From Gammaproteobacteria bacterium (GTDB lineage: Bacteria > Pseudomonadota > Gammaproteobacteria > Eutrophobiales > Eutrophobiaceae): 64,000 nt of DNA. The notes below the pieces were generated by a model. The model was not told the origin of the DNA, searched no databases, and saw only the letters and a list, made by a program, of their open reading frames with translations. The stretch spans positions 37,801 through 101,800 of the forward strand of contig OZ245888.1 in NCBI GenBank assembly GCA_965229565.1. Reading direction: 5' to 3'. Shown here piece by piece: positions 3,042-43,160 of the stretch. How positions within the stretch are numbered: position 1 is the stretch's first letter; each line of letters opens with the position of its first letter. A program made the translations under genes and the position numbers.

Positions 3042-3049
3042 TGAACTCC

Positions 3050-9218: not shown

Positions 9219-9252
9219 TACTTTTCTCCCTCTGGTACTACTTTTTTGAAAC

Positions 9253-11890: not shown

Positions 11891-11907
11891 GTGAACCCTG
11901 AAACTGA

Positions 11908-13359: not shown

Positions 13360-13386
13360 AAAAACCAGCACTACAGGAGAAGTAAA

Positions 13387-13971
13387 ATGTTAAAACTGAA
13401 AAAAGTCATGATTACGGCCACACTGGTAGCAGCTTGTGCCCTGCCATTCACAGCATCGTCGGAGATAGCCGATACACCGACGTTTACGCCCAAGCAGTTG
13501 GCCGACTGGCTACACCTGGTTATGTCGACTGACCGGGCGGTTTATACCAAGAAGATTGTGAACAGACTGGTAAAGAAGGACAAGGTCATCAAGGCCAGCG
13601 AGCATTTTGAAGATGACAAGGCCCTGGTATTACCGGCACAGATGTTCCGCTTCGGTGCAGAAGAAGTCGCCAAGAAAACGGACCAGTTTACCTATTCTCT
13701 GCAATCACTATGGCCTATCAACAAGCAGAACGCCCCGCGCACTGAAATAGAAAAGGCCGGCCTCGCCTATGTTAGCGAGAACAAGGGAGAAAACTACTAC
13801 GGTGTTGAAGAACTCGGGGGCACCCAGTATTTCACCGCCGTGTATGCCGACCCCGCTGTTGCGCCTGTTTGTGTCAGCTGTCATAACGAACACAAGGACA
13901 CACCAAAGAGTGATTTCAAACTGGGTGATGTTATGGGCGGCGTGGTGATTCGTATACCTCTGAAGGGCTAA
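13387..13971 (+). CDS. Periplasmic heme-binding protein, DUF3365/Tll0287-like
   Basis: Signal peptide followed by a single C-terminal CVSCHNEH heme motif and GDVMGGVVIRIP. The overall length and motif placement match the DUF3365 family (assignment from memory of family features). Confidence 0.5.
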   Translation: MLKLKKVMITATLVAACALPFTASSEIADTPTFTPKQLADWLHLVMSTDRAVYTKKIVNRLVKKDKVIKASEHFEDDKALVLPAQMFRFGAEEVAKKTDQFTYSLQSLWPINKQNAPRTEIEKAGLAYVSENKGENYYGVEELGGTQYFTAVYADPAVAPVCVSCHNEHKDTPKSDFKLGDVMGGVVIRIPLKG

Positions 13972-24557: not shown

Positions 24558-24908
24558 TTAATCTTTTTTGTTATTTCCCTTGGTATTTACAGAAGAAAAT
24601 CCTTGTCTTAATTCATAGCTTATACTTAAACTCAAAACGGTCCTTACCAGGATTACCGATGCCAGTAATGCAATGTGTTCTATGGTGGGAGTATGTATTG
24701 TAGCAAGGATATCTGCTGCTATAAGGAATTCCAGCGCAAAAACCAATCGCTGACAAAATTGTAGACGGAGTGGTTCGACATCATTATTGAGCCCCTTATT
24801 CAACCATGTATGTATTAGATCATACAATGACAAACTGGCCGCTCCGACAATGAACAGGCCCCCAACCCCTTCCAGAATCAATATCATTATATTCAGTAAT
24901 ATTTCCAT
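24558..24908 (-). CDS. Small membrane protein (DUF1622-like)
   Basis: 116 aa with three TM helices. Last gene of the minus-strand redox operon, 17 nt after the cytochrome gene. Confidence 0.4.
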   Translation of the reverse strand: MEILLNIMILILEGVGGLFIVGAASLSLYDLIHTWLNKGLNNDVEPLRLQFCQRLVFALEFLIAADILATIHTPTIEHIALLASVILVRTVLSLSISYELRQGFSSVNTKGNNKKD

Positions 24909-24925
24909 AATGTATTCACCTTATG

Positions 24926-25690
24926 TTAATGATGCTTATACCAACCGATTTTAGGAATATCATTCCAGTCGTTGGTTTTATGACAGATAAAACATTGAGT
25001 GACATCTGCATGTTTCACGTCGGCTACTTTCATTGACACCATCTTGAAATGTTCCATGTAATGGCTGGGCGGTGCCTGATGACATTGGGCGCAATCCGTT
25101 GACTTCGAACTGGGATGGAGAAATTCGGGGATAGTCCATGTGATGGTTGAATGGCATGTAGTACAGTCTGTGCCAAACAGGTCACGATGAGGGTCTTCAT
25201 TGGAATGACAACTAGCGCAGTTTAACCATGTTTCCTGAACTGATATACGTGCATGTGGTGCTGACATCTTTTCCAGATGGAGTTTTTTATCGACCGACAG
25301 CTCATTACTACCAATCCTTGCCAGCGTCACATGGTTCATTTCCGTCGGGCGCCGTTCACTATCCAGATGCTCGATATGACAGCTACGACAATTGCCTATC
25401 TCTGCATGAAAAGCGGTGGATTGCTTACCCAGTAACGTCTGGTTGCTAGCATGGCAGGTGATGCAGTTAAGCGGTTCCGGTCCCTTAACGGCAGTATGGC
25501 AGGCGGCACAGTTATGCTCCAGAAAAGTATGACCTGCCGATAAGGGACCGGGGCTGGCCATGCGTTGCCAGGTATTCGCGTCCAGCCAACCTGTGATCGT
25601 ATCGTCAGGATGTGGCTTTCCATATTGTGCCCACAGTAAGAGAATGCCGACTATCACTATCGAGCACAGCAAATATGGCCAGAGTTTCAT
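24926..25690 (-). CDS. Heptaheme cytochrome c, periplasmic with an N-terminal anchor
   Basis: ORF-track start at 25810 rejected in favour of the ATG at 25690 (MKLWPYLLCSIVIVGILLLWA), which overlaps the upstream gene stop as ATGA. Heme motifs: CAACH, CITCH, CRSCH, CASCH, CTTCH, CAQCH, CFICH, including doubled-CXXCH pairs. Confidence 0.75.
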   Translation of the reverse strand: MKLWPYLLCSIVIVGILLLWAQYGKPHPDDTITGWLDANTWQRMASPGPLSAGHTFLEHNCAACHTAVKGPEPLNCITCHASNQTLLGKQSTAFHAEIGNCRSCHIEHLDSERRPTEMNHVTLARIGSNELSVDKKLHLEKMSAPHARISVQETWLNCASCHSNEDPHRDLFGTDCTTCHSTITWTIPEFLHPSSKSTDCAQCHQAPPSHYMEHFKMVSMKVADVKHADVTQCFICHKTNDWNDIPKIGWYKHH

Positions 25691-26445
25691 GTAAACCACC
25701 TCAGCCCGAAATGTATGCCCCCCCAAATATGCAGAACCAGAAGACCGTAAAGAACAAACGCAATGGTGATATGAAACCTGAGCCACCACTGGAATGCGGA
25801 TTTGAACCATTCATGCATCCTGATTGCATACTCAACCTCGGCCATAGCATCGGCTAGAGCGAGTGCTCGCAAGTGCGGTAAACTTCCTTGCCCAATGTCT
25901 TCCCGTAACAAAATCCGGTTGGCGATCCAGCGTGTGAACAGACCGGAAAACGGACGTACCAGTGCAGCCTGTCCCTGATTGGTAGCCAACTCAGAGGCGA
26001 CCTGACGGTAATTGATTTCCAGTTCGGTAAGTATCTCTTTCTTTTCACTGATAGTTTGCGAAAAACGTTTCAACAAGTAACGGCCTACAAATCCGCTCAG
26101 CACTACCACCAGTGTCATCCCCGTAAGTGCAATACCCAGAGTGCTATCGAATTTGTGGCTTGAATGGATGATTACTAGAATAGGTCCCAGCACCCCGGCG
26201 TAAATATGCCAGGCCAGCAAGGTTCGCATGGAAACAAACTGTGTAACCCAGCGATTAAGTAGCTTAACGCGCTTCACCACAAGATAAACCAATGGAACCA
26301 GCATCAACACTGCACCTGTCACACCAAATACGCCACCCCAAAGACTACCGGCAAATCGCGGAGATTGATGAAACAGGAATCCCAGCCAGAAGATCAGCAT
26401 TAACAAAACTAGCGCTGTGACTATGATCGGTTCGCGCTCCTTCAT
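25687..26445 (-). CDS. Ferric-reductase-domain-like di-heme-b integral membrane protein
   Basis: ~6 TM helices with two HX13H pairs (HIYAGVLGPILVIIH; HITIAFVLYGLLVLH). Translationally coupled to the flavoprotein gene upstream (ATGA) and the heptaheme gene downstream (ATGA). Confidence 0.6.
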   Translation of the reverse strand: MKEREPIIVTALVLLMLIFWLGFLFHQSPRFAGSLWGGVFGVTGAVLMLVPLVYLVVKRVKLLNRWVTQFVSMRTLLAWHIYAGVLGPILVIIHSSHKFDSTLGIALTGMTLVVVLSGFVGRYLLKRFSQTISEKKEILTELEINYRQVASELATNQGQAALVRPFSGLFTRWIANRILLREDIGQGSLPHLRALALADAMAEVEYAIRMHEWFKSAFQWWLRFHITIAFVLYGLLVLHIWGGIHFGLRWFT

Positions 26446-28337
26446 GCTTTCACCAATATGTCGCCGGATGCCTTAGCCTGGCATGCGAGAATAATGTTTT
26501 TCTCCTTATCTCCCGGTTGCAAGCCGTCCTCAACAGCCATGCTGACTTTACCAGCGAGTAATTCCACCCGACACAGACCACACACGCCCGACCGGCAGGA
26601 GAAGTCAATGTCCACTCCCAAATCTTCGGCTACGTCCAGCACCACCTTGTCTGGAGATAGTTGCCCGGCTTTGTTCGAATCCGTAAAAGTCACAGTGGAC
26701 AACTCTTCCGCTGTTGTTTCCAAACCCTCCAGATTCACATTCTGATCAGCTTTAGGTGTCCGCTCCTGTTTACCAAGAGCAGGGCCAAAGGCTTCAGTCT
26801 TGATACGATCAGTCGGGACACCCAGATCAGCCAGCAGCTGTTTTGTAGCCTCCATCATGGGTACCGGACCACAAATGTGTATGTAACGTGTCGGCAGATC
26901 AGGCACGCTTGCAACAATCAGATCTTTGGTAATATGCCCCTTTTGTCCTGACCATTCTGTTCCCTCGCTTTGCCCCACAGTGATAACGACGTGCAGATTA
27001 GCGTGACGGCGCTGCAGGTAGTCCAGTTCTTCACGGAATATGATGTCGGCGGGGCTGCGGCAACCATAAATAAGGAAAATATCGCCATCCCAACTACGAT
27101 CCGTAAGATAACGCAATACACTCATAAGAGGAGTAATCCCGACTCCTCCGCCAATCAGCAAAATGCATTTACATTCACGGCCAGTGAAAACAAGGGAACC
27201 ACTTGGACCTGAAAGATCCAGTAAATCCCCTTCTTGTACTTTCGTATGCAGATGTCCCGATACCTGCCCTTCCGGTGCTAGTTTAACCGTAATTTCAATG
27301 TAATCCCTTTGCGTAGGAGAAGAGGCAATCGTATAGCTTCGACGGTCAATAGATCCGTTGTTTGAAACGGCAACGGTAATAAATTGACCAGGAAGAAAAT
27401 CAAACGGCAGAAAGCCGCCAGCAGGGTTCATGAGTCGGAAAGTCTTGACGTCGGCAGTCTCCTGAAATATACGGCCTACACGCAACTGTCCCGACCAACG
27501 TTTGCCGCTATGTCTGGGAACTGCTGTAAGTATTTTTTCAGGTTGACTATCCGGTTGCTCTGCAAGACGAAAATTTATACCTTGTTCATCATCACGGTTT
27601 ATCTCCGTCAGGTTGTGTAAGAGTTGCGATGCTCGCCGCATCTTTAGAAAGTAGATCCACAGAAAACCCGCAATGAAGACAATCGAACTGAACATAATCC
27701 AGAAATGAAACCAGGATACTCCCAAGATTGCAGACTCTTTCTGAACAGAAACCGGACCGGGAAGTTCCATTTCCCTCCGGAACCAGTCGAGTGCTATTGC
27801 TTGTGGATCATCGATGCCGGAAAGGGCACGATGCGCTGCAAGGCCGCTCTCGAAACGGGCCATGCCCTCATGCAATAGATCTACCGCCTGTTGTATCGTT
27901 TCATAATCATCGGTAGCAACGGAATCAGCAAGACGGTTTAGTCCATCCGTCATTAGTTCAGTTCCACTTGCCATGCGTTCATTAGCTGCAGATTCAACCT
28001 CCTCTCGTTTTTCCTGCGTAAGAACGGCCAGTGTCATGAGTGAAGGGTAAATTTCCTTAGGCGGTGGCACACCCATATTGCGCATCATCTCTCCCATAGC
28101 TTCCATTGGTCCCGGAGCTGTTGCCGGTCCCGGTAAAGATGAGGCAGAGTCCTGTTGTGACATTGATGGAGGACCGGGATGGTGCGCATTATGCTCCTCA
28201 GGCGATACCCCTGCCTGGGTTATTCTTACAGAGAATATAAGCAGCATAAGCAATATTGATAGTGAGACACGGCTGCGTGAATGGAAAAATCTAAAGATGT
28301 TCACAGCTCTCACTTTCTTATGTAGTTGTTTATCCAT
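26442..28337 (-). CDS. Membrane-anchored FNR-type flavin reductase with a C-terminal 2Fe-2S ferredoxin domain and an N-terminal His/Met-rich periplasmic domain
   Basis: - Signal peptide.
- ~190 aa periplasmic region (EEHNAHHPGPP...MEAMGEMMRNMGVPPP).
- One TM helix.
- FAD site RSYTIASSP.
- NAD site LLIGGGVGITP.
- C-terminal CRSGVCGLCRV plant-type ferredoxin motif. Confidence 0.65.
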   Translation of the reverse strand: MDKQLHKKVRAVNIFRFFHSRSRVSLSILLMLLIFSVRITQAGVSPEEHNAHHPGPPSMSQQDSASSLPGPATAPGPMEAMGEMMRNMGVPPPKEIYPSLMTLAVLTQEKREEVESAANERMASGTELMTDGLNRLADSVATDDYETIQQAVDLLHEGMARFESGLAAHRALSGIDDPQAIALDWFRREMELPGPVSVQKESAILGVSWFHFWIMFSSIVFIAGFLWIYFLKMRRASQLLHNLTEINRDDEQGINFRLAEQPDSQPEKILTAVPRHSGKRWSGQLRVGRIFQETADVKTFRLMNPAGGFLPFDFLPGQFITVAVSNNGSIDRRSYTIASSPTQRDYIEITVKLAPEGQVSGHLHTKVQEGDLLDLSGPSGSLVFTGRECKCILLIGGGVGITPLMSVLRYLTDRSWDGDIFLIYGCRSPADIIFREELDYLQRRHANLHVVITVGQSEGTEWSGQKGHITKDLIVASVPDLPTRYIHICGPVPMMEATKQLLADLGVPTDRIKTEAFGPALGKQERTPKADQNVNLEGLETTAEELSTVTFTDSNKAGQLSPDKVVLDVAEDLGVDIDFSCRSGVCGLCRVELLAGKVSMAVEDGLQPGDKEKNIILACQAKASGDILVKA

Positions 28338-28508: not shown

Positions 28509-28919
28509 TTACATATGACCCATGCCACCAGACATACCTTTCATTTGCTGCATCATTTGCTGCATCATTTGCTGCATCATTTCCATATTATGATTCATCA
28601 TGTCCATACGCTTATCCGAATCCATTGATTTCGGCTGGAAATTTTTGTTCATGTTATCATTCATCATTTGCATTGCATGTTGCATGGTCGCCATATGCTC
28701 CTTCGTCAGTTGTTCCCGCGTTTCCGGATTTTGTTCTGATTTGATGCGTTCCATCAACCCTGTCATTTTTTCCATTTGTACTTGTAAATCTGTACTTTGA
28801 GATTTTTCTATCTGAGTATTCATACTCTTTGTATCCATATTGTGATCATGCATTTCTGCTGAGAAAGCTGACACAGTGAAAAGAGTCAAAAACCCTATTA
28901 CTATGAAAGTATGTTTCAT
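28509..28919 (-). CDS. Periplasmic Met/His-rich metal-binding protein (SilE/PcoE-like composition)
   Basis: Signal peptide and repeated MxxM/MxxH motifs (MNHNMEMMQQMMQQMMQQMKGM). 136 aa. Confidence 0.55.
   Translation of the reverse strand: MKHTFIVIGFLTLFTVSAFSAEMHDHNMDTKSMNTQIEKSQSTDLQVQMEKMTGLMERIKSEQNPETREQLTKEHMATMQHAMQMMNDNMNKNFQPKSMDSDKRMDMMNHNMEMMQQMMQQMMQQMKGMSGGMGHM
28544..28592. repeat. In-frame 12-bp tandem repeat (4 units, GCTGCATCATTT) encoding (MMQQ)n
   Basis: Four perfect tandem copies inside the Met-rich protein gene. Confidence 0.8.
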
Positions 28920-29041: not shown

Positions 29042-29620
29042 CTAATGTCCATGCTCTGCCGAATTTTCACCACGAGCGGTGAGTATCTGGTATTGCGCTG
29101 GTGAAAGTTCTGGCAGGCGTCTGAGGAAGGCGACCATGTTCCAGATACGCTCGTCGTCGTGCCCCGCCCCCCAGGCGGGCATGCCGGAGGCTTTGATACC
29201 ATGCTTGATGATCCAGAACTGGCGCTGCAGGGTGTATTGCCCCCCATCCTGACCGCCATAACCGTGCTCGTGTTCATCCATTGTCAACCTGGGCGGTGAG
29301 GGATAAAGCCCTAATGTAAAATCGCTTTGCTTCATACCCGGTTTCAGATGGCAACCAACGCACATGTCGTTATAGTCAGCACCGCCTTTGAGAAGGCGAT
29401 CAGGCAAGTTCAGATTATCGGGAATAACGATATCGCTTGCCGCCCGTGCGATCGAACGCTCGCGCAAGGTTTCCAGCGCCCAGTAGGTCATTGAATTGTG
29501 TGGGACGTCGGCTCCCATGGGATAGAGACCGGAATAAATTAATACCAGCCCACCGGAGATGGCAATGCCTGCTGCTAGCAGCAGGCATTTGCCACAAGAT
29601 ATAAATTTGCTTACGGACAT
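29042..29620 (-). CDS. c-type monoheme cytochrome in the copper resistance cluster (CopJ-like by context)
   Basis: Single CVGCH motif. Probable start is MSVSKFISCGKCLLLAAGIAISGG (ATG at 29620), not the ORF-track start at 29704. Confidence 0.55.
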   Translation of the reverse strand: MSVSKFISCGKCLLLAAGIAISGGLVLIYSGLYPMGADVPHNSMTYWALETLRERSIARAASDIVIPDNLNLPDRLLKGGADYNDMCVGCHLKPGMKQSDFTLGLYPSPPRLTMDEHEHGYGGQDGGQYTLQRQFWIIKHGIKASGMPAWGAGHDDERIWNMVAFLRRLPELSPAQYQILTARGENSAEHGH

Positions 29621-29768
29621 GTTGCCCCGCGATGTATGGGCCCTGGTGACACCACCATGATTGGTATTTCCTCTTGAATATCGGTAACGGTGCCCGACAG
29701 ACAAATTATCCTTGCCATGCTTCGGATGCTCGGCCTGATGTTGTACAGGATTATCGATCGCATCATCA

Positions 29769-30092
29769 TTACATGTCCTTGTGGTCCATGTCTTCTTGCT
29801 TCATGTCTTTGTGATCCATGCCTTTATGCATCATATCTTTGTGATCCATGTCCATATGCTCCATGCCATCATGCTTCATGTCTTTATGATCCATGCTTTC
29901 CTTGCATTTCTGCATCATGGCCTGCATTACGGGATCGTTTTTGTCCATCTTGCTTTCATCCATGTTTTTCATGGTGGCGCAGTCTGGCTTTTGTGCATCT
30001 TTCATATGCTCTTTGGGATCGTGCGCCTGCGCGGTTACGGCAAACAGCAGAGACTGGATAATGACAAGGGTAGTTAAAGTAATCTGTTTCAT
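29769..30092 (-). CDS. Periplasmic His/Met/Asp-rich repeat protein with (M-D-H-K-D-M)n motifs
   Basis: Signal peptide followed by repeated MDHKDM/MEHMDM units. Composition typical of periplasmic copper-binding proteins. Confidence 0.5.
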   Translation of the reverse strand: MKQITLTTLVIIQSLLFAVTAQAHDPKEHMKDAQKPDCATMKNMDESKMDKNDPVMQAMMQKCKESMDHKDMKHDGMEHMDMDHKDMMHKGMDHKDMKQEDMDHKDM

Positions 30093-30149
30093 TTGACATT
30101 CCTCACGTTAATGGATTATGTGTTAAGACTAAATGCTGTAAATTAAATT

Positions 30150-30995
30150 CTAAAACCAGAATCGCAAACCGGCAACAAAGCGTGTGTCACTGTCATTTTC
30201 TCCGGCAGCGCGCAGGTAATCCGCCGTTTCGCCGAAGGCAGAAGACCACTCTACTCCGATATAGGGCGCAAACTGGCGGCTGAACTCGTAGCGAAGACGC
30301 ACCCCAATTTCAAGATCGGTGAGACCATCACCCAGACCGTTGGCACGATCTTCTTTCCCGTACAGGTTCAGTTCTGTACGTGGTTGCAAAATCAGTCTTT
30401 GCGTTAATAACAGCTCATATTCGGCTTCCAGGTTAACTGCAGTGCGCCCGTTTTCGCCCAGGTAGGCGGTCACATCCAACTCAAACCAGTATGGTGCGAG
30501 ACCCAGGATCCCTAGTGCTAACCAACGGCGATTCTTGCCTTCATCATACTGGTCGAAACGGACGCCGAGCTGCGTGTCGAAAAAAGCATTCACTGCATGC
30601 GACCAGAATACTTCAGTCTGGCTGCTTTCCAGACGGTCATCGACAATGTCACCTTCCGCCTTGACGTAAAACCGGTCAAAGGTGGTGCCATACCAACCCT
30701 GGAAATCATACAGTGTGCTACCATCGCTCTCGCTGTATTCTAGGCGATCACCGAGCACGGCCCAGAAGGCATGTTCATCGGCCAATTTGAGTTGCCTGAC
30801 ACCGGGTTGGGCATAGGGACCCTCGGTCAGGGTGTAGCCATCTGCATAGTCATGGGGATCGCGAGCGTCCTCGGGCGCGCTGCCTCCCTGCATTTGCATA
30901 TTTCCATGCTCCTTTTGCGCCAACGCAGTATCAGTCTGAACTAGGCCAAAAGTCAGCAGCAACAGACTTATCAAAGTTCCTGTTTTAAAATTCAT
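30150..30995 (-). CDS. copB: Copper resistance outer-membrane protein CopB/PcoB
   Basis: Signal peptide, Met/His-rich N-terminal segment (HGNMQMQGG), beta-barrel ending in WF. Overlaps the copA stop (ATGA). Confidence 0.75.
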   Translation of the reverse strand: MNFKTGTLISLLLLTFGLVQTDTALAQKEHGNMQMQGGSAPEDARDPHDYADGYTLTEGPYAQPGVRQLKLADEHAFWAVLGDRLEYSESDGSTLYDFQGWYGTTFDRFYVKAEGDIVDDRLESSQTEVFWSHAVNAFFDTQLGVRFDQYDEGKNRRWLALGILGLAPYWFELDVTAYLGENGRTAVNLEAEYELLLTQRLILQPRTELNLYGKEDRANGLGDGLTDLEIGVRLRYEFSRQFAPYIGVEWSSAFGETADYLRAAGENDSDTRFVAGLRFWF

Positions 30996-32788
30996 GACAC
31001 AACCACCTCGCGGAACATGCCCGCATCCATATGAAACAGCAGGTGGCAGTGCCAGGCCCAGCGGCCCAGATCGTGGGGTGTCGTCAGGAAGCTGATGCGC
31101 TGGGCCGGTTGCACTGGAATGGTGTGACGCCGCACCCGCAGTTCTCCCTGATCAGTTTCTAATTCGCTCCACATTCCGTGCAGATGCATGGGGTGGGTCA
31201 TCATAGTGTCATTCTGCAGAATTATCCTGACGCGCTCATTATGGTGCAGGGACACAGGTGTACTCTGCCCAAATTCCAGACCATCGAAAGACCAGCTGTA
31301 GCGCTCCATATTCCCGGTGAGATGCAGCTCAAGTTCCCTGCCAGGCGACCGAGGATCATCCAGAACCGCGTCGATGGATTTCAAATCCGCCAGCGTTAGT
31401 ACGCGGCGGCCGTTGTCACGAAGACCAATGCCCGGGTCATCGAGATTGGTGCGTGGCGTTTCTACGCGCATGTCTACCGATGGACCGTATTCTGTGCGTG
31501 CGTGACGCACGGTTTGCGATGGCTTGGACAGTGAGCTTTCATCAGCTTGCGACATATCATGCATGCTGTGATCCATGGCCATACCGCCATGCTTGCCGGA
31601 ATGATCCATACCCGTATTATCCATGGCCCCCATCATATCCTTCATAGTCAACCATTCCACCGCATCGGGTTCCGGCACCGGTGCCGACAGGCCCGGCTGT
31701 ACGGCCAGGGTACCGCGAGCGTAGCCGGTTCGTTCCATGCTCTGGGCAAAAATGGTGTAGACATCGTCTCTCGGCTCGACCATCACATCGTAGGTTTCGC
31801 CAGGGCCAAAACGGAACTCATCTACCGTTACCGGCTCCACATCCTGACCGTCGGCCTGGACGACAGTCAGCTTCAAGCCGGGAATACGAACATCATAAAA
31901 GGTGTTACCGGCACCATTAACAAAGCGCAGACGGACGCGATCACCACGTTTGAAAAGGCCCGTCCAGTTTCCTGCCGGGGTGGTGCCGTTCATGAGATAG
32001 GTCAGTGTGGCTGCCGAAAGGTCTGCCAGATCTGTCGGACTCATGCGCATCCGGTTCCACATCTGCCGTTTTTCAAGTGCTCCCTTCAAGCCCATCGCGG
32101 AGACATCGCGGGTAAAATCAAAAAGCGTAAGCTGATTAAAATTAAACGTATCGGATTGTACTTTTAGTTTGCTGAGAACATGCATGGGATCTTCGTCGGT
32201 CCAGTCGGAAAGCTGAACTACGTAATCCTGATCGGCACGATGTCGTTCGCCTGACCTTGGTTCAATGATCATCGCGCCATACATGCCGGTCATTTCCTGA
32301 AAACCCGAATGGCTATGGTACCAGTATGTTCCACTTTGTCTGAGCGTGAAACGGTAGATAAAAGTCTCACCTGGCGCGATGCCGTCAAAGCTGATCCCGG
32401 GTACACCGTCCATCTGGTAGGGCAGTAAAATGCCGTGCCAATGAATGGAGGTGCTTACCGGCAAGCGGTTGGTCACCTTTATCGTCACGTCATCGCCCTC
32501 GCGTAAACGTAACGTGGGGGCCGGGATGGAACCATTTATCGTCGTGGCCATACGAGCCACGCCAGTATAGTTGACCGGCGTTTCAGCAATGACAAGATCG
32601 ATTTCCTGCCCACTCAATACCGGGGCGGAACCCAGCAATGTTTCATCTTTTTCCCTGGCCAATAACCAGGGGGGTGCTGCGGCTAAAACCCCTCCGGCGA
32701 CCAAACCCTGTACAAAACGGCGGCGGCCAAAGTCAACGGCGGGTAATAAAGGTTGTGGAAATTGTCTAGTCACTAATAGTGCCTCCAT
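30992..32788 (-). CDS. copA: Multicopper oxidase CopA/PcoA
   Basis: Tat signal (RRRFVQGLVAGG), Cu-site motifs HWHGILLPY and HCHLLFHMDAGM, and an internal Met-rich insert (MKDMMGAMDNTGMDHSGKHGGMAMDHSMHDM). Confidence 0.85.
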   Translation of the reverse strand: MEALLVTRQFPQPLLPAVDFGRRRFVQGLVAGGVLAAAPPWLLAREKDETLLGSAPVLSGQEIDLVIAETPVNYTGVARMATTINGSIPAPTLRLREGDDVTIKVTNRLPVSTSIHWHGILLPYQMDGVPGISFDGIAPGETFIYRFTLRQSGTYWYHSHSGFQEMTGMYGAMIIEPRSGERHRADQDYVVQLSDWTDEDPMHVLSKLKVQSDTFNFNQLTLFDFTRDVSAMGLKGALEKRQMWNRMRMSPTDLADLSAATLTYLMNGTTPAGNWTGLFKRGDRVRLRFVNGAGNTFYDVRIPGLKLTVVQADGQDVEPVTVDEFRFGPGETYDVMVEPRDDVYTIFAQSMERTGYARGTLAVQPGLSAPVPEPDAVEWLTMKDMMGAMDNTGMDHSGKHGGMAMDHSMHDMSQADESSLSKPSQTVRHARTEYGPSVDMRVETPRTNLDDPGIGLRDNGRRVLTLADLKSIDAVLDDPRSPGRELELHLTGNMERYSWSFDGLEFGQSTPVSLHHNERVRIILQNDTMMTHPMHLHGMWSELETDQGELRVRRHTIPVQPAQRISFLTTPHDLGRWAWHCHLLFHMDAGMFREVVVS

Positions 32789-32834: not shown

Positions 32835-34199
32835 CTACGCTATTCCATAAGCAAGCATTGCATCTGCAACTTTTACAAAGCCCGCGATATTGGCACCATC
32901 AACATAATTAATTTTTCCGTCGTCACCATTCCCGTACTGTAAACATTGACTATGTATATGCTTCATAATTTGCTTTAATTTTTCATCAACTTCTTCTCTA
33001 GTCCAGGCAAGTCTTAATGCATTCTGACTTTGCTCAAGCCCGGACACGGCAACTCCTCCAGCATTCGCTGCTTTTGCTGGAGCAAATAGAACTTCATTAT
33101 CTTGAAATAACCTAACAGCCTCTAATGTTGTTGGCATGTTAGCGCCTTCTGCCAAGGCTATTACTCCATTGTCAATTAAGGCTCTAGCGTGATTTAAGTC
33201 TAATTCATTTTGAGTAGCACAAGGAAAAGCCAGGTCAGATTTAATAACCCAAGGTCGTTGATCAGGAAAATATTCTGCTGAAGCGTATCTATTGACATAT
33301 TCTCTAATACGACCTCGTTTGACAAACTTTAACTCTCTAACCCAGCTTAGCTTTTCACCATCAATACCATCAGGATCATGAATAAATCCGCTTGAGTCAG
33401 AAAGTGTTAATACTGTTACTCCTTCATCTATCAATTTTTCTGCACAAAATAAGGCAACATTTCCTGAGCCGGAAATGACAGCACTTTTCCCGTCCAATCG
33501 CATATCATGATATGTAAGCATCTGTTTAGTAAAATATACAACGCCATACCCTGTTGCCTCGGATCTAATTAAGCTTCCACCAAAAGATAGACCTTTACCT
33601 GTTAATGTCCCGACAAAACGATTATTTAGCCTTTTATACTGTCCAAACAAGAAGCTAATCTCTCTTGCTCCCACACCAATGTCACCAGCAGGAACATCTG
33701 TATCCTCTCCAATATGGCGAGATAATTCAGTCATTAATGATTGGCAAAATCTCATTACCTCTCTTTCACTTTTACCTTTGGGATCGAAATTACTTCCACC
33801 TTTAGCACCACCCATTGGAAGTCCTGTTAGCGCATTCTTATAAACTTGCTCAAACCCCAAGAACTTTAGAATACTTTGTGTAACTCCCGGGTGAAATCTA
33901 AGGCCGCCTTTATAAGGACCAATGGCGTTATTAAATTGAACTCGCCAGGCACGATTGCAACAGATATGTCCGTCATCGTTTTCCCAACATACTCGAAATA
34001 TCACAATTCTATCAGGCTCAGTCATTCGTTCGAGAATGTGACCATCAGCATATTGTTCATTGTTCATGGCGAAAGGCATGACTGACTCTGTAAACTCTCT
34101 AACAGCCTGATGAAATTCATACTCTGCAGGATTTCGCTCAGTCACTCCCTGGTTAAATAATTCGGTTTCATGTTTAATATTTTCATTGTTATATATCAT
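32835..34199 (-). CDS. gdhA: NADP-specific glutamate dehydrogenase
   Basis: GLPMGGAKGGS catalytic motif with the Glu/Leu/Phe/Val dehydrogenase N- and C-domains. 454 aa. Confidence 0.85.
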   Translation of the reverse strand: MIYNNENIKHETELFNQGVTERNPAEYEFHQAVREFTESVMPFAMNNEQYADGHILERMTEPDRIVIFRVCWENDDGHICCNRAWRVQFNNAIGPYKGGLRFHPGVTQSILKFLGFEQVYKNALTGLPMGGAKGGSNFDPKGKSEREVMRFCQSLMTELSRHIGEDTDVPAGDIGVGAREISFLFGQYKRLNNRFVGTLTGKGLSFGGSLIRSEATGYGVVYFTKQMLTYHDMRLDGKSAVISGSGNVALFCAEKLIDEGVTVLTLSDSSGFIHDPDGIDGEKLSWVRELKFVKRGRIREYVNRYASAEYFPDQRPWVIKSDLAFPCATQNELDLNHARALIDNGVIALAEGANMPTTLEAVRLFQDNEVLFAPAKAANAGGVAVSGLEQSQNALRLAWTREEVDEKLKQIMKHIHSQCLQYGNGDDGKINYVDGANIAGFVKVADAMLAYGIA

Positions 34200-34331
34200 G
34201 GTATTAACTCACTAGCGTTAACAGGCCCTTTACTGAAAATAGTCCCTCAATAATTGGAAAATTATATTTTTTCTTACCATTATTGTTTAAACTTGTTTAT
34301 ATATACTCAATCTTAGATTACAAAAAACTAA

Positions 34332-34985
34332 TTACGTTTCTGCCTTAAATCGCGTCCAATCGGGTAAAAATGCAGGTGTAGCTTGCATATAATTTATGTA
34401 TTTATCGCCAAAAGTTAAAATTGCGTTTTCCTCTTCGCGTTTAGCCAAACGAATATAGATATATACAAGTATTGGAAACATAATGAGTGTAGGCAATGTA
34501 GGCCATTGCAACAAAAAACCAAACATGATGATAATAAAGGCTACGTATTGCGGATGCCGAATATAGGAATAAGTACCACTGCAAGCGAGTGTTCTATCCT
34601 TTTGAGATTTGTAGAGAACATTCCACGATGAAGCAAGTAACCAAAATCCTAGAATGATAAAGACGTAACTTAAAATATGCAGGATATCAAAATGTGCATT
34701 ACCCCCTAGCCCCAACAAGGTATGCCATAAATGACCATTCTCATGCGATAGGAAATCAACACCTGGATAATTTTGTGTAAGCCACCCGGACAATAAATAG
34801 ATGGTTAATGGAAAGCCATACATTTCAGTGAACAATGCCACAATGAAAGCCGAGTACATGCCAAATGAACGCCAATCTCTTTTTGTCTGTGGTTTAGCAA
34901 AACTAAACGCAAAAATAATAAATATGGTCGAATTGATAATTACTAATGACCAAAGCCCATAGTCTGAAGCAGTTCCATGATCCAT
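34332..34985 (-). CDS. Membrane methyltransferase-family protein (ICMT/PEMT/NnrU-like)
   Basis: Multi-TM protein with an RHPQY motif. Confidence 0.5.
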   Translation of the reverse strand: MDHGTASDYGLWSLVIINSTIFIIFAFSFAKPQTKRDWRSFGMYSAFIVALFTEMYGFPLTIYLLSGWLTQNYPGVDFLSHENGHLWHTLLGLGGNAHFDILHILSYVFIILGFWLLASSWNVLYKSQKDRTLACSGTYSYIRHPQYVAFIIIMFGFLLQWPTLPTLIMFPILVYIYIRLAKREEENAILTFGDKYINYMQATPAFLPDWTRFKAET

Positions 34986-34987
34986 GA

Positions 34988-35218
34988 TTATTCCTCCTTA
35001 TGAAGTGAATGGTCATCATGCGAACCATGGCTATGACCATGACTACCATGCATGAAAAAATGCATTAATGGACAAAGTAAAAATATCAAATAGGGTAAGT
35101 ATGGAACTATATGCGCCCAATGTTCAGTGATTAAAAGATAAGCAACAAACCCCATAAAGACCCACATCACAGAATTGTGCTTTTTTATTTGTTTGGCATG
35201 CGTATCGTGTTCATTCAT
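34988..35218 (-). CDS. Small membrane protein with His-rich C-terminus (DUF2933-like)
   Basis: 76 aa with two TM helices followed by HGSHGHSHGSHDDH. Confidence 0.45.
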   Translation of the reverse strand: MNEHDTHAKQIKKHNSVMWVFMGFVAYLLITEHWAHIVPYLPYLIFLLCPLMHFFMHGSHGHSHGSHDDHSLHKEE

Positions 35219-35251
35219 GATGGCATCCTCGATAAATAAATATTATTAGCG

Positions 35252-35527
35252 TCAACATGAACCAGATTTGGTATTTTTTGAAACTACGTAGTTATAAATC
35301 GGAACCCAAATTAAAGCGAAGTACCAACCATAGGCATAACTTTCTATTGCCCCTATAAAAAAACTTTTCCAGTTAATAAACTCAAACCCTGGCAAAAGAT
35401 CTTGCCATGCCTTAAACATGGCATGTTCAGGGAATAATAAATCAAACGCAACGCAGATTGAAAAAGTAAACAACAATAACAAACTCGTTGCATGACCAAA
35501 TGCCAATAGCGATAGTCTTCTGTTCAT
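35252..35527 (-). CDS. Small integral membrane protein, hypothetical
   Basis: 91 aa, 3 TM helices, no recognisable motif. Confidence 0.35.
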   Translation of the reverse strand: MNRRLSLLAFGHATSLLLLFTFSICVAFDLLFPEHAMFKAWQDLLPGFEFINWKSFFIGAIESYAYGWYFALIWVPIYNYVVSKNTKSGSC

Positions 35528-35602
35528 ATGGCTATTCCTTATTTAACAAATTGTGTCTCGAACATGCATGTTGTTAATCACACACATCCGAGACACTTTT
35601 AT

Positions 35603-35926
35603 TTAATGATGTTTTCTAGGGTCAAGCCTCCAGACTTTACCCTCATCAATCATTACCTTGCCACCGTCCTTCAGTTCCATTGGCGGATGATGTCGTCTGG
35701 GATCCAGACGCCATACATTCTTGTTTTTCATCATAATTAATGTGCCATCTTCCAACTCCATTGCAACACCATCTTTCATTTTAATAGAGTTACCGTCTTT
35801 ATCCTCCATCCTCATTGTTTCATCATCATTAATAATCAAATAAGAACCATCTTTTAATGACAACTTTTCAGCTGCCATTGCAGAGAAACTTACCATTAAT
35901 AACAAAATGTATATTAATTTACGCAT
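35603..35926 (-). CDS. Periplasmic Met-rich copper-binding protein, CopK-like
   Basis: Signal peptide followed by LKDGSYLII..MRMEDKDGNSIKMKDGVAMELEDGTLIMMK, with an internal duplication VWRLDPR(R/K)HH. Confidence 0.45.
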   Translation of the reverse strand: MRKLIYILLLMVSFSAMAAEKLSLKDGSYLIINDDETMRMEDKDGNSIKMKDGVAMELEDGTLIMMKNKNVWRLDPRRHHPPMELKDGGKVMIDEGKVWRLDPRKHH

Positions 35927-35966
35927 TACTTTTCTCCTTTTAATTAAAAAGTAAACATGCTTTTTT

Positions 35967-36248
35967 TCACAGAACTTCTTTGTCTTCCTCCTTTAGGTTG
36001 AGATATTGTTCCGGATTATCATCAAATTTATCCAGACAATTTTTTGAACAAAATCGATAAAGCTGACTCTCATATATTTTTCCATAGCCCTTATCAGGTT
36101 CGACATGCATGCCGCAAACAGGATCAGCATGATTTGGTTGACTATGCGAGTGAGTGTGAGAGCCATGAACCATATGAGCACCACAACCAAAACGCATCAT
36201 CAAGTAAAAGAATAATGCGAATAACAAAAATGAACCTAAACCTTCCAT
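35967..36248 (-). CDS. YHS-domain membrane protein with His-rich segment
   Basis: TM helix, HGSHTHSHSQPNH, and a YHS motif (DPVCGMHV...YRFCSKNC). Confidence 0.55.
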   Translation of the reverse strand: MEGLGSFLLFALFFYLMMRFGCGAHMVHGSHTHSHSQPNHADPVCGMHVEPDKGYGKIYESQLYRFCSKNCLDKFDDNPEQYLNLKEEDKEVL

Positions 36249-36306
36249 AACGTTACCCTCATGCTTAACCTGTTTTAAAGCATTAAAAATTCTTCCTCAT
36301 ATAAAT

Positions 36307-38829
36307 TTACTCAACACCAAGCTTTGCCCGTTTAAGTAAGATGGAGTTGCCAATAACGGATAATGAACTTGTCGTCATAGCAATAACGCCGATCATGGGA
36401 TGTAACAAACCAATGGCGGCAATAGGAATGGCGGCAAGATTATAAAACCAGGCCCAGAAAAGATTTTGCACTATCTTGTTAAAGGTAGATTTCGAAAGAC
36501 GAATAGCCTCAACTACTTTGGTTAACTCACCTTTAACCAATGTCACATCAGCTGCTTCAATTGCGACATCGGCACCTGCACCAATTGCTATTCCAACATT
36601 GGCCTGTTTTAAAGCTGGCGCATCATTAATACCATCACCTACCATGGCAACCTGTTCGCCATATTTAGATTGTAAATTTCTTACCTCATCGACTTTTCCT
36701 TGAGGTAAAACTCCGGCAAGTACTTCATCGATATTAACTTGTGTTGCAACATGTTTTGCTGTGCGTTCATTGTCACCAGTAATCATGACCACGCGTATAT
36801 CCATTACGTGTAAAGCAGCTATGGCCTCTTTTGAATCAGCCTTAATCGTATCTGCAACGGCCACAATGCCTGCTGCTTGATTGTCGATGGCAACAAGCAT
36901 GGCAGTCTTTCCTTCGGATTCGAGTCGCACCATGTCTTTTTCTAAACCGTTAAGTGAAATACTTGACTCTTGTAACAAGCGCCGATTGCCTACTAGTACA
37001 TTTTGATTCTCTACTACACCCTGAACACCACGTGCCGTTAATGCTTTAAAGTTTTCCACAGTTGGAATAGATAATCCTTTCTCCTTTGCACCGATCACAA
37101 TTGCTTGCCCTAAAGGATGTTCCGATCCTGCTTCAATTGCAGCTGCTGCTTTTAATACAGAGTCTTCATCAAAACTACTTGTAGTTATAATGTCCGTTAA
37201 TGCCGGTTTACCTTCAGTAATAGTCCCTGTCTTATCAAGTACAACAACCTTAATATCTTTGAGTGTTTGAATGGCTTCACCAGATCGAATTAATACACCT
37301 CTTTCTGCGCCCAAGCCTGAGCCCACCATGATGGCTGTTGGTGTTGCTAATCCCAATGCACAGGGACATGCGATTACTAATACAGATATAGCTGCCAATA
37401 TGGCTAGCATAATGGGACTTAAATCTGGATCGACCCAGGGCAGAAATGATTCACCCCATATCAATATGGGATTCAATGCATCAGCAAATAACAGCCATAT
37501 CAGGAAACTGGCTGAGCTTATGACAATAACTGCCGGAACAAATTTCGCAGTAACTTTATCGGCAAATTCTTGAATGGGTACTTTTGAACCCTGTGCTTCT
37601 TCAACCAGTTTTATGACTTGTGAAAGAAATGTATCTGCACCTACTTTAGTTGCCCGTATCTTTAACATTCCCTCTTTATTAATTGTGGCCCCAATAACCG
37701 GTTCTCCGGCCCCTTTCTCGACTGGAAAAGATTCGCCGGTTGCCAATGATTCATCCAGATGGCTATTTCCTTCAATGATTTCTCCATCTGTAGGTACTTT
37801 TGCACCCGGACGTACAACCATCAGATCACCTACAATCAATTCTGAAATCGGGATATCAACCTCTTCCCCGTCTTTGATAACGGTTGCAGACTTTGCACCC
37901 ATCTTAAGTAATTTTTTTATGGCTTGTGAGGCACGTCCCTTTGCGCGGGTTTCAAGATAACGCCCTAACATATGAAACGTCATAATAGTGGAAGCCATTT
38001 CGATAAATGAAGTCATCGGATAAAAGAAACCCACCAAACCAATACAGTAAGGTGGCAAACTTCCCATAGAGATCAACACATCCATATTAGCCGTTCGATT
38101 GGTTAGGGAGCGCCAGGCTGATACATGGGTAGACCAACCGCCATAGAGAAAAACAACAGGGAAAGCCAATAAAGAAATTATTGCGAGATAAGCGGGAATC
38201 GGTTTCCAGAACATTTCAAACCCCATTAATATCATGATTAATGTTGTTGGAACGCCTGCTATCCAAAGTCGATGCCATGCCTGTTTCAAGTATCGTTCTT
38301 CAATCTCACCTTCATCGACTTGATTAGATTTCGAAGTTTTTATTTCATCTACGGCAGCAACATCATAACCCGCATGAACAATCGCTTCTTTAATTGTAGA
38401 TACATCAACTTCATTTGATAAAAACCGGACTGTTACACGATGATTACTAATATTTGTACTGATACCGATAATGCCGGGTAAACGTTCTATTGAACTGGAT
38501 ACCAGCCCGGCACAATGATCACTTCCCATACCTGGAACAATAATTCTTATCTCACTATCTTTAGTATCTACTTCCTTACTCTTAACATCAGCAACATCAT
38601 AACCTGCATTAATAATGGCAGACTTTACAGCCTCAAGAGATATCTCATTATTATCAAAGTCAACTTCAACATGATGGTTAGCAATGTTTGTTTTTACGGA
38701 ATTGATTCCATTTAACCGTTTTAACGACGTGCTTATAATTCCGGCACAATGATCGCTGCCCATGTTTGGCACAATAAACAATCCATGATTGCCAATCACT
38801 TTATCAGTTGAAGTTGATTGATTCATCAT
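36307..38829 (-). CDS. P1B-type heavy-metal (likely copper) translocating ATPase with two atypical N-terminal metal-binding domains
   Basis: DKTGT, CPC (ACPCALG), GDGINDAP and HP motifs. Both N-terminal HMA-like domains carry GMGSDHCAG in place of the canonical GMxCxxC. Confidence 0.85.
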   Translation of the reverse strand: MMNQSTSTDKVIGNHGLFIVPNMGSDHCAGIISTSLKRLNGINSVKTNIANHHVEVDFDNNEISLEAVKSAIINAGYDVADVKSKEVDTKDSEIRIIVPGMGSDHCAGLVSSSIERLPGIIGISTNISNHRVTVRFLSNEVDVSTIKEAIVHAGYDVAAVDEIKTSKSNQVDEGEIEERYLKQAWHRLWIAGVPTTLIMILMGFEMFWKPIPAYLAIISLLAFPVVFLYGGWSTHVSAWRSLTNRTANMDVLISMGSLPPYCIGLVGFFYPMTSFIEMASTIMTFHMLGRYLETRAKGRASQAIKKLLKMGAKSATVIKDGEEVDIPISELIVGDLMVVRPGAKVPTDGEIIEGNSHLDESLATGESFPVEKGAGEPVIGATINKEGMLKIRATKVGADTFLSQVIKLVEEAQGSKVPIQEFADKVTAKFVPAVIVISSASFLIWLLFADALNPILIWGESFLPWVDPDLSPIMLAILAAISVLVIACPCALGLATPTAIMVGSGLGAERGVLIRSGEAIQTLKDIKVVVLDKTGTITEGKPALTDIITTSSFDEDSVLKAAAAIEAGSEHPLGQAIVIGAKEKGLSIPTVENFKALTARGVQGVVENQNVLVGNRRLLQESSISLNGLEKDMVRLESEGKTAMLVAIDNQAAGIVAVADTIKADSKEAIAALHVMDIRVVMITGDNERTAKHVATQVNIDEVLAGVLPQGKVDEVRNLQSKYGEQVAMVGDGINDAPALKQANVGIAIGAGADVAIEAADVTLVKGELTKVVEAIRLSKSTFNKIVQNLFWAWFYNLAAIPIAAIGLLHPMIGVIAMTTSSLSVIGNSILLKRAKLGVE

Positions 38830-39036
38830 CTCTCCTTTATTTAAACGTTATTCATTAATATTCTGTCCATGCATATGTTCCATGTCTTTTATCATGGCAC
38901 CAATAATAAAATAAGGATATTCCAGTCCGTCTGAAAGATGATATTTAAAGTCAAAGTATGTCCTGCATAAAATATCAATACGCCTATTAAAAACGCAATA
39001 TTTCCTAGAAAAGCCGCCAATTCGCACCATGTATAA

Positions 39037-39474
39037 CTAAGTAATACTCTCTATCAAATGACATATGGAGTCGCCAACCGGAATAGAATCGTCCATGTTT
39101 TCCCATTGCCGTAATGCTTTTTCCATTCTTTTTTGTAATACCATTGCTTCATTAAATTGATTTTTATTCTTTTCTATCCTTTTCTTAATTATATCCCTCA
39201 CCAATGGGCAAGGGCTTTCGCTTTTTTCACTTGCTATAATAATCTGCTTAATTTCATTAAGCGTATATCCCAATATTTTTGCTTTTCCTATAAATTTCAA
39301 GCGAATCAGATCTGCATGACTGTACATCTGATAATTATTGGTTTTATTTCGTACTGGCTTTAGTAATCTCTTTTTTGTATAAAATCGGACCGCGTCAGTT
39401 GTCACATGGGCTGCATCAGCAAGTTCCTTAACCTGATAAAAACTTATTTTTTTACTATACACTTCTGAATTCAT
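39037..39474 (-). CDS. MerR-family transcriptional regulator
   Basis: N-terminal HTH (VKELADAAHVTTDAVRFYTKKRLLKP) and a coiled-coil dimerisation region. Likely start is MNSEVYS (39474) rather than the ORF-track 39504. Confidence 0.65.
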   Translation of the reverse strand: MNSEVYSKKISFYQVKELADAAHVTTDAVRFYTKKRLLKPVRNKTNNYQMYSHADLIRLKFIGKAKILGYTLNEIKQIIIASEKSESPCPLVRDIIKKRIEKNKNQFNEAMVLQKRMEKALRQWENMDDSIPVGDSICHLIESIT

Positions 39475-39690
39475 TAGCATCGACACCAAAAATGTTTCAT
39501 ACACGTAATTACTCTATTAATTCATCAGTCTAAAACATAGGTCTTAGACACAGGTCAAGCCTGACTTTGATTTTATATAATTCCCATAACTCTGTCTCAA
39601 CCACTACCATATTATTTTTAAATTTTCTCATGTCTATATCTATTCTAATTTTATTATTCATAAATAGTTTGGTTTCTATATATCTAGAAG

Positions 39691-40008: not shown

Positions 40009-40058
40009 AATTTCACCTGTTATTTATTTTTTGATAACTTTAAATGAAAATTTACAAG

Positions 40059-43157: not shown

Positions 43158-43160
43158 GAT

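Follow-up and report, generated by a model that had tools for sequence, protein, structure and literature searches.

A putative periplasm-facing electron-transfer module encoded beside copper-resistance genes in an uncultured gammaproteobacterium

The window analysed here, a 64,000-nucleotide stretch of contig OZ245888.1 (assembly GCA_965229565.1), comes from the metagenome-assembled genome (MAG) of an uncultured gammaproteobacterium and contains four open reading frames (ORFs) arranged head to tail on the minus strand, referred to as genes 1–4. The first three encode a membrane-anchored flavin/2Fe-2S reductase with a periplasmic His/Met-rich domain, a putative two-haem cytochrome b and a cytochrome c with seven haem-binding motifs; the MAG annotation lists them as a ‘FAD-binding oxidoreductase’ (gene 1) and two entries named ‘hypothetical protein’ (genes 2 and 3). 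With about even confidence, we propose that genes 1–3 specify a three-subunit inner-membrane complex that, in the response to copper stress, draws electrons from cytoplasmic NAD(P)H and delivers them to the periplasm. An initial annotation, made from the DNA letters, had already suggested a periplasm-directed, copper-linked chain through flavin, 2Fe-2S, haem b and haem c, and this outline fits the domains, the predicted topology and the strict synteny of the trio described below.

The same annotation described all four genes as translationally coupled by ATGA overlaps. Such overlaps were found between genes 1 and 2 (‘gcATGAagg’) and between genes 2 and 3 (‘acATGAaac’; the 254-aa length of gene 3 is counted from the ATG that overlaps the gene 2 stop), but gene 4 follows gene 3 after a 17-nt spacer with an AAGGTGA ribosome-binding site. 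The assignment of gene 4 to DUF1622 was confirmed in Pfam (PF07784, E 6e-19, 68.2 bits against a cut-off of 24). As a member of the system it did not hold up: a homologue was present in only 18 of 87 loci, as expected of an occasional neighbour.

Cofactor-binding features of the three proteins

The cytoplasmic part of gene 1 contains the three domains of a flavin-dependent iron-sulfur reductase that had been anticipated, and each exceeded its Pfam cut-off (gathering score): FAD_binding_6 at residues 293–383 (E 1.9e-14, 54.2 bits against 21.1), NAD_binding_1 at 394–499 (E 4.3e-22, 79.3 bits against 22) and Fer2 at 563–623 (E 3.7e-13, 49.6 bits against 21). In an alignment of orthologues from four lineages (A1), the flavin and nucleotide motifs (R333-S-Y-T336, G397-GGVGITP and C489-G-P) and the cluster cysteines (C581-x4-C586-x2-C589...C619) were invariant. 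The nearest NCBIfam models were GbcB (the best match, E 3.7e-73, 246.5 bits against 500), Hcr (188.7 against 383) and PaaE (161.3 against 420.8), all below their equivalog cut-offs. Because these scores fall so far short, the earlier label ‘PDR-type’ is right for the architecture, in which FAD, NAD and Fer2 domains follow in that order, and wrong as membership of any named reductase. PDR, PaaE, Hcr and GbcB share with gene 1 the succession of flavin, NAD and C-terminal plant-type 2Fe-2S modules, but they are soluble and work with oxygenases or with the hybrid-cluster protein, whereas gene 1 starts with a signal peptide, continues through a periplasmic domain and a transmembrane (TM) helix, and has no oxygenase neighbour.

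No Pfam family matched the first 280 residues of gene 1. Hydropathy revealed two hydrophobic segments (22–40 and 204–222), in agreement with the signal peptide and single TM helix initially described, and the His/Met motifs quoted at that time are present. The probable signal peptide rests on hydropathy and the N-terminal helix of the AlphaFold2 (AF2) model, with the cleavage site read by eye. The model (predicted local distance difference test, pLDDT, 79.6) comprises a signal-type helix, a helical periplasmic domain containing a hairpin at residues 108–173, and a TM helix at about 206–231. The periplasmic domain is His/Met-rich as stated, and is smaller than the roughly 190 residues first given, extending over about 160 (about 43–205). 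Its best-conserved residues in 79 orthologues were H49, H52, H53, P54, M81, M84, M85 and M88, and all seven of these His and Met residues were conserved in at least 90%. The three histidines belong to the motif SPEEHxxHHP, directly after the signal peptide, and the four methionines form a second motif, MxxMMxxM; F210 and H211 in the TM helix were also conserved in this set. His and Met clusters of this sort are typical of Cu(II) and Cu(I) sites, and the domain may play a regulatory role. A relationship to the CnrX/Spy/CpxP-like ‘Metal_resist’ proteins was considered and rejected, as profile–profile comparison gave an 11-column LTxxQ-like match with a probability of 17%.

Gene 2 exceeded the threshold of no Pfam or NCBIfam family, Ferric_reduct included (no gene 2 match at E <= 0.01). 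It contains five hydrophobic segments, and five membrane helices in its AF2 model (pLDDT 90.9), in place of the six reported initially. The two HX13H pairs, in contrast, were located as described: H80 and H94 on TM3 and H225 and H239 on TM5. Together with G118, G247 and W250, these four histidines were invariant in 60 members of the family, down to 25% identity, and their spacing of 13 (12–14) and position on TM3 and TM5 fit the PF01794 pattern. Between TM4 and TM5, the model places a charged helical hairpin of about 90 residues, which lengthens both of them (helices 102–155 and 190–245). Twelve lysine and arginine residues lie in this insert and five in loop 2–3, and the topology was read from the positive-inside rule: the N-terminus, loop 2–3 and the hairpin are predicted to be cytoplasmic and the C-terminus periplasmic. 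With that orientation, H80/H225 and H94/H239 would form two depth-matched pairs, one near each membrane face, and the hairpin could offer a docking surface for the 2Fe-2S domain of gene 1.

In the model, the four-helix core of gene 2 appears most like two-haem b cytochromes. This resemblance is suggestive, and the histidine pattern carries the argument, because talin-like helical bundles score level with CybB among the structural matches. Foldseek comparison of the model with the PDB gave no significant match, the long hairpin drawing coiled-coil and ABC-transporter proteins, and a profile search of PDB sequences gave none either (CsNOX5 membrane domain, E 1.2). Sub-threshold Pfam matches among the 60 relatives were divided between DUF4405 (25), Ferric_reduct (18, the best a weak E 0.004) and Ni_hydr_CYTB (15). 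Furthermore, no Pfam threshold was reached for cytochrome b561/CybB, FdnI, HyaC (Ni_hydr_CYTB) or DUF4405, which are quinone-linked proteins, and gene 2 differs from them in having its ligands as HX13H pairs on two helices. Judged by these sequence features, gene 2 is best placed in the superfamily of two-haem transmembrane cytochromes b, as a branch without a name, and not in the ferric-reductase-domain family. The initial term ‘ferric-reductase-like’ is thus apt at the level of the superfamily and fails at that of the family, where the Ferric_reduct model was not matched and only five TM helices are present. A protein that appeared to fuse genes 1 and 2 (P0187) looks like a frameshift artefact, its 2Fe-2S domain stopping before the fourth cysteine and giving way to an Arg-rich linker, and it was not used as evidence.

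Gene 3 was correctly recognised as a heptahaem cytochrome c. It carries seven CXXCH motifs, a number retained in 79 of 81 orthologues, and matched Cytochrom_c3_2 (28 bits, cut-off 25) and Cytochrome_C7 (25.1 bits, cut-off 24.8) in Pfam, in keeping with a small multihaem cytochrome c of the class III/c7 type. Outside these motifs, ten histidines and two methionines are conserved, which by sequence would be enough to supply a second ligand to all seven haems with few to spare; the spare conserved ligand sites are SHYMxHF and the C-terminal YKHH. The protein looks like an electron wire and not a catalytic haem enzyme. Since its N-terminal hydrophobic anchor (residues 3–21) is retained, it is probably tethered to the membrane and not free in the periplasm. 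No significant relative was found among PDB sequences (best E 0.46).

Synteny, hosts and copper-gene neighbourhood

A genome scan with the gene 2 profile yielded 80 loci, which, with loci fetched earlier, brought the number compared to 87. ORFs in these loci were called crudely, as six-frame ORFs of at least 70 aa, and the recurrent neighbour clusters were annotated in part. Gene 2 was adjoined by the N-terminal domain of gene 1 in 85 loci, by the reductase part in 85 and by gene 3 in 84, and the exceptions are cut contigs. Synteny at this level (84–85 of 87 loci) across many lineages, together with the ATGA coupling, makes it improbable that the trio is not one system, with gene 1 serving an unrelated cytoplasmic partner and genes 2 and 3 fed by quinol. 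Such an arrangement is also at odds with the membrane anchoring of gene 1 beside gene 2, and no oxygenase partner was observed among the annotated recurrent neighbours.

The trio was identified in at least eight bacterial lineages. The majority of hosts are Planctomycetota, and the others include Nitrospirales (Nitrospirota), Nitrospinaceae (Nitrospinota), Verrucomicrobiota, Hydrogenedentota, one Anaerolineaceae genome (Chloroflexota), and Alpha-, Beta- and Gammaproteobacteria. The gene 2 family comprises 1926 matches in a collection clustered at 90% identity (1270 representatives at 50%), close to the 1849 matches of gene 3; the module amounts to about 1,900 clusters at 90% identity. Gene 2 records are named ‘hypothetical’, and those of genes 1 and 3 carry generic names only. 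Among plasmid records, 54 contain the module, including Sphingobium (17), Alteromonas (7) and Legionella (5), and several of these plasmid-borne modules lie in annotated copper islands. Cultured carriers include Parahaliea mediterranea DSM 21924, Methylophaga pinxianii, Alteromonas macleodii HOT1A3, Variovorax sp. WDL1, Legionella pneumophila H3, and Stieleria or Rhodopirellula species. For gene 2 relatives at about 30% identity, the sole contig found in which to look for partners is just 1.5 kb long. In the case of Bradyrhizobium sp. BTAi1 plasmid pBBta01 (L093), three sites match gene 2; one gene 1 copy there is broken by an IS3 insertion, and the stretch examined ends with another gene 1-like ‘2Fe-2S’ gene, preceded by a ‘Spy/CpxP family’ gene.

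Consistent linkage of the orthologues to metal-resistance genes had been set beforehand as a check on the copper connection, and it was found. Among the 50 loci with full 10-kb flanks, a multicopper oxidase was present in 18, a P1B-type ATPase in 14 and an RND pump in 18, and 37 contained at least one of the three within 10 kb. This number rose to 43 when CopB, outer-membrane factors, CusB-type adaptors and the ICMT-type gene, which is common in copper islands, were added to the list. By our own rough estimate, which assumes about two such genes per 5 Mb and is not based on matched control loci, a random 20-kb window would catch an oxidase less than 1% of the time. Linkage to copper genes was still seen at 44% identity, on a Variovorax plasmid, and in two loci a copper ATPase is inserted between genes 1 and 2.

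Unbiased clustering of the neighbouring ORFs revealed a Met/His-rich periplasmic protein of the ‘Metal_resist’ (‘heavy-metal sensor’) type (C6) directly upstream of the module in 56 of 84 loci. Other recurrent neighbours were an ECF sigma factor, small CBM48-like and Cys-rich proteins, and TRASH-like and DUF5676 proteins. In 30 of 84 loci, the module was accompanied by an NADP-specific glutamate dehydrogenase (cluster C11), whose gene frequently lies immediately before gene 1, on its upstream side. As a malic enzyme occupies a similar position in two loci (L096 and L097), the dehydrogenase may act as a source of NADPH. Alternatively, it may offer a way of making glutamate without iron-sulfur enzymes in copper stress, as reported for E. 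coli.

The gene order of the window recurs in Nitrospirales, where glutamate dehydrogenase, CopA, CopB and a Met-rich protein are followed by genes 1, 2 and 3. The Variovorax WDL1 plasmid combines a ‘periplasmic heavy metal sensor’, the trio, DUF1622, DUF411, copper-binding proteins, CopA and CopB, and Legionella pneumophila plasmid pH3-D-14 (L089) groups the trio with ICMT, DUF2933, glutamate dehydrogenase, a multicopper oxidase and an RND pump. In the latter plasmid, a full F-type ATP synthase operon with an AtpZ/AtpI gene (3094–9273 of L089) adjoins the module and the copper genes.

The coordinates of the module and its nearest neighbours are presented in Table 1. The initial description of copA-copB, Met/His-rich proteins and a cytochrome upstream on the same strand proved accurate, with CopA (TIGR01480, 915 bits), CopB, two Met/His-rich ORFs and a Cytochrome_CBB3-type cytochrome c all identified. 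The secreted 136-aa ORF (28509–28919), whose C-terminal end reads MQQMMQQMMQQMKGMSGGMGHM, matched no Pfam family, and neither it nor the 107-aa Met-rich ORF showed homology by hhalign to the ‘Metal_resist’-type proteins (C6), of which both had been considered as relatives.

Table 1. Features of the module and its upstream neighbours, in window positions
Feature	Position	Strand	Description and basis
Gene 1	26442..28337	-	631 aa; membrane-anchored flavin/2Fe-2S reductase with periplasmic His/Met-rich domain
Gene 1, residues 1-42	28212..28337	-	Probable signal peptide; hydrophobic segment 22-40, then TQA/G (slash, cleavage site)
Gene 1, residues 43-205	27723..28211	-	Periplasmic helical domain; two conserved metal-type motifs
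Gene 1, residues 206-231	27645..27722	-	TM helix; F210-H211 conserved, KMRRA after it on the cytoplasmic side
Gene 1, residues 293-623	26469..27461	-	Cytoplasmic FAD, NAD(P)H and C-terminal plant-type 2Fe-2S domains; Pfam
Gene 2	25687..26445	-	252 aa; five-TM putative two-haem cytochrome b, unnamed family
Gene 2, residues 74-96	26158..26226	-	TM3, H80-x13-H94; alignment, AF2, hydropathy
Gene 2, residues 125-215	25801..26073	-	Charged helical hairpin extending TM4 and TM5; AF2
Gene 2, residues 218-243	25717..25794	-	TM5, W221-x3-H225-x13-H239; alignment, AF2, hydropathy
Gene 3	24926..25690	-	254 aa from MKLWPY; N-terminally anchored periplasmic cytochrome c, seven haem-binding motifs
Gene 4	24558..24908	-	116 aa; DUF1622 small membrane protein, accessory neighbour
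Secreted Met-rich protein	28509..28919	-	136 aa, directly upstream of gene 1; ORF and Pfam scan
Cytochrome_CBB3-type cytochrome c, Met/His-rich 107-aa ORF, CopB, CopA multicopper oxidase	29042..32788	-	
NADP-specific glutamate dehydrogenase	32835..34199	-	NF006929, 707 bits against cut-off 536

Beyond these genes, positions 34000–44000 of the window form a block of low guanine-cytosine (GC) content, 0.35–0.41 against about 0.47–0.50 elsewhere, which suggests horizontal acquisition. This block includes an ICMT-type gene, a copper P1B-ATPase, a MerR-type regulator, CusCBA-like genes and a CopK-like ORF at 35603–35926 that scored 68 bits, below its cut-off. Just past the Cus-like genes, a stand-alone BLUF blue-light sensor protein was identified at 46333–46761 on the minus strand (E 4.7e-23). 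On the plus strand, positions 9908–13971 encode a 660-aa flavoprotein, a 483-aa multihaem cytochrome c and a Tll0287-like protein. This set is the first version of the logic to which the initial annotation alluded. The flavoprotein resembles the N-terminal half of NirB (Pyr_redox_2, Rubredoxin_C and Fer2_BFD; TIGR02374 at 392 bits, below the cut-off). Upstream of this set, at 1362–9254 on the minus strand, it adjoins two NMT1_2 binding proteins, an ANTAR response regulator and a nitrate/nitrite-type ABC transporter.

Proposed electron path and competing explanations

Cofactor order and topology together leave a single sensible electron path. NAD(P)H would reduce the FAD of gene 1, from which electrons would pass to the C-terminal 2Fe-2S cluster of the same protein and then to the cytoplasm-side haem b of gene 2 (H80/H225), across to the periplasm-side haem b (H94/H239) and into the seven c-haems of the membrane-tethered gene 3. 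Gene 3 would finally hand the electron to a periplasmic acceptor. Copper, reduced from Cu(II) to Cu(I), is the most likely acceptor, given the gene neighbourhood, the His/Met motifs of gene 1 and the existence of haem-dependent cupric reductases in eukaryotes (PMC7558416). In such a scheme, Cu(II) held at the HxxHH motif of gene 1 or on gene 3 would be reduced to Cu(I), which the MxxMMxxM cluster could capture and relay either to efflux systems specific for Cu(I) or to the Met-rich proteins of the periplasm.

The competing explanations rank by weight as follows: periplasmic redox repair, other metals or a metallic end point, a trio that is not one system (considered above), iron reduction or extracellular respiration (considered below with the proteins of iron oxidisers) and inward electron flow. 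The first of these, a minor contender, retains the same chain and assigns it to repair or protection in copper stress, with disulfides, oxidised Met/Cys-rich copper proteins or reactive oxygen species as targets. In 16 of 84 loci, mostly from Planctomycetota, the gene 2 homologue continues at its C-terminus for about 290 aa as a DUF547 domain, in which a CAAVSCP motif is invariant (L016, L023–L026, L030, L039, L052, L053, L060, L068, L077, L078, L083, L085 and L087; the proteins include P0122 and P0107). The domain is predicted to face the periplasm. Cys/Met-rich periplasmic proteins are also common among the neighbours (c24, c30 and the TRASH-like c32), and MsrPQ and CusF (PMC9302797) offer a precedent, in which a haem-b protein of the membrane supplies repair in the periplasm during copper stress. 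Set against redox repair, no MsrP-type, thioredoxin-type or peroxidase partner was found among the annotated recurrent neighbours, and DUF547 is absent from the window itself. Moreover, HxxHH and MxxMMxxM, both conserved, have the look of sites that bind metal directly, and all seven c-haems of gene 3 can be bis-His ligated, which is atypical of a peroxidase.

A somewhat weaker contender keeps the chain and changes its end point, so that Ag(I), Au(III), Cu(II) or Cu(I) would be converted to insoluble particles or another toxic metal would be reduced. Copper genes of the kind found here, Cus-type RND pumps and Met-rich proteins, also handle silver, low-potential bis-His multihaem cytochromes are able to reduce many metals, and a chain driven by NAD(P)H has ample driving force. 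Yet no mer, ars, chr or tellurite genes appeared among the annotated recurrent neighbours, and the sequence does not distinguish one-electron from two-electron outcomes.

Inward flow is the least probable of the five, and very unlikely. In this case, periplasmic H2 (via a hydrogenase) or reduced metals would feed electrons through gene 3, gene 2 and gene 1 to NAD(P)H. It draws on Alteromonas macleodii plasmid pAM1A3 (L088), where the trio (10067–13550) lies between copC/copD and a [NiFe]-hydrogenase cluster of structural and maturation genes that directly follows it, and on the fact that H2 is reducing enough to drive NAD(P)+ reduction. The hydrogenase linkage was seen at that one plasmid locus only, however, electron donation by Cu(I) or Fe(II) would run steeply uphill, and reductases with the domain order of gene 1 normally run from NAD(P)H to 2Fe-2S.

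Several observations weigh against a cupric reductase delivering electrons outward in copper stress. The main difficulty is that a periplasmic source of Cu(I) would work against the neighbouring CopA, which oxidises Cu(I), and the two activities would make a futile cycle unless they operate under different conditions. Speculatively, the conflict would ease if copper arrives from oxic water as Cu(II) but has to be Cu(I) for Met-rich carriers and for efflux systems of Cu(I) specificity. In addition, 7 to 13 of the 50 full-flank loci have no tested metal gene within 10 kb, the exact number depending on the list applied. The pAM1A3 locus is the sole context seen that hints at a periplasmic electron donor in place of an acceptor, and the CAAVSCP motif of the DUF547 fusions points to thiol chemistry in some lineages. 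In one locus (L007), the periplasmic domain of gene 1 is encoded as a separate, ATGA-coupled gene, so its covalent link through the membrane to the reductase is not essential. A search for CusR/CopR operators yielded three matches at the level of three mismatches, fewer than the chance expectation of 4.9, and a promoter and terminator scan gave signals at or below shuffle levels, none of them convincing. Finally, full-text literature searches retrieved no paper on the module, and no expression or mutant data were found for any of its members.

Relation to known systems and significance

The cofactor modules of the trio are all familiar. In the ferric-reductase-domain oxidoreductases of the NOX/FRE/FRO group, which include SpNOX and CsNOX5, a cytoplasmic FNR-type FAD/NAD(P)H module likewise feeds two stacked b-haems held by HX13H-type pairs on TM3 and TM5, and the electrons exit the cell. 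Yeast Fre1, a member of this group, reduces Cu(II) for Met-motif transporters. The trio differs from the group in its separate polypeptides, in the addition of a 2Fe-2S cluster and a seven-haem cytochrome c, in the five helices and cytoplasmic hairpin of gene 2, which fails the Ferric_reduct model, and in a reductase that bears its own periplasmic metal-type domain. The split design has a counterpart in the E. coli MsrQ-Fre/MsrPQ system, where the flavin reductase in the cytoplasm, the haem-b protein in the membrane and the acceptor in the periplasm are distinct proteins and which is tied to copper stress (PMC9302797). MsrQ, in contrast to gene 2, is a member of the ferric-reductase-domain family and passes its electrons to a molybdoenzyme, and the system operates without 2Fe-2S or c-haems. 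By analogy, the trio would follow the logic of NOX/FRE and MsrQ-Fre with separate parts, to which an iron-sulfur step and a haem-c wire are added.

By motif description, the level at which they were compared, gene 2 resembles the PCC3/PCC4 inner-membrane proteins of Fe(II) oxidisers, which He et al. 2017 described as computational predictions (PMC5566968). These proteins also have five TM helices, SGXXG on TM4 (S117-G118-F-V-G121 in gene 2) and HX13H on TM3 and TM5; with regard to their WX3HX13H pattern, TM5 of gene 2 fits (W221-x3-H225), whereas on TM3 W79-H80 is not WX3H. PCC3/PCC4 proteins are found beside porins and large extracellular cytochromes, a setting that includes neither copper genes nor an NAD(P)H reductase. 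The shared signature is one reason to consider the module as an Fe(III) reductase or an extracellular respiratory conduit, as are the His pattern common to ferric reductases and the multihaem nature of gene 3. Such a role is nevertheless quite unlikely. Among the annotated recurrent neighbours of the trio we observed none of the porin-cytochrome genes expected of that class, nor an outer-membrane multihaem cytochrome, a TonB receptor or a siderophore gene. The recognised hosts are aerobes, for instance Alteromonas, Legionella, Sphingobium and Nitrospira-type organisms. Furthermore, a chain that draws on NAD(P)H directly, without passing through the quinone pool, would conserve no energy.

With Cu(II) reduction as the proposed activity, the closest functional proposals are CcoG and the periplasmic CrpH. 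The bacterial cupric reductases CcoG, NDH-2, RclA and the proposed CrpH (PepSY_TM) share the proposed conversion of Cu(II) to Cu(I) with the trio and belong to unrelated protein families. CcoG uses 4Fe-4S clusters and reduces Cu(II) in the cytoplasm, while CrpH, a haem-b protein of the membrane, has been proposed to work on the periplasmic side (PMC13038864). In contrast to the trio, CrpH serves the copper supply of oxidases and not resistance, and its proposed activity is speculative. Haem-dependent extracytoplasmic cupric reductases (Fre, Steap and Dcytb) are established in eukaryotes, and are listed for eukaryotes only (PMC7558416).

Tentatively, and with confidence short of even, we suggest that the trio may be the first bacterial metalloreductase that is powered by NAD(P)H, based on haem and facing the periplasm. 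It would then represent an overlooked and widespread core of copper islands and a functional counterpart of Fre1/STEAP. Acting upstream of Cus-type efflux and in opposition to CopA, it could set the periplasmic Cu(II)/Cu(I) balance or make metallic copper, with the His/Met domain as a substrate site or a gate.

Current models of periplasmic copper handling contain oxidases (CopA and CueO), chaperones and pumps specific for Cu(I) but lack a dedicated electron source, a gap that the trio may fill. If it reduces copper, the module would account for the way in which aerobes turn Cu(II) into a substrate of Cus-type efflux, establish a new family of two-haem cytochromes b and provide a marker gene set for metal-resistance islands. 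Should the acceptor be different, an NAD(P)H-to-periplasm chain that bypasses the quinone pool would still be unusual in bacteria.

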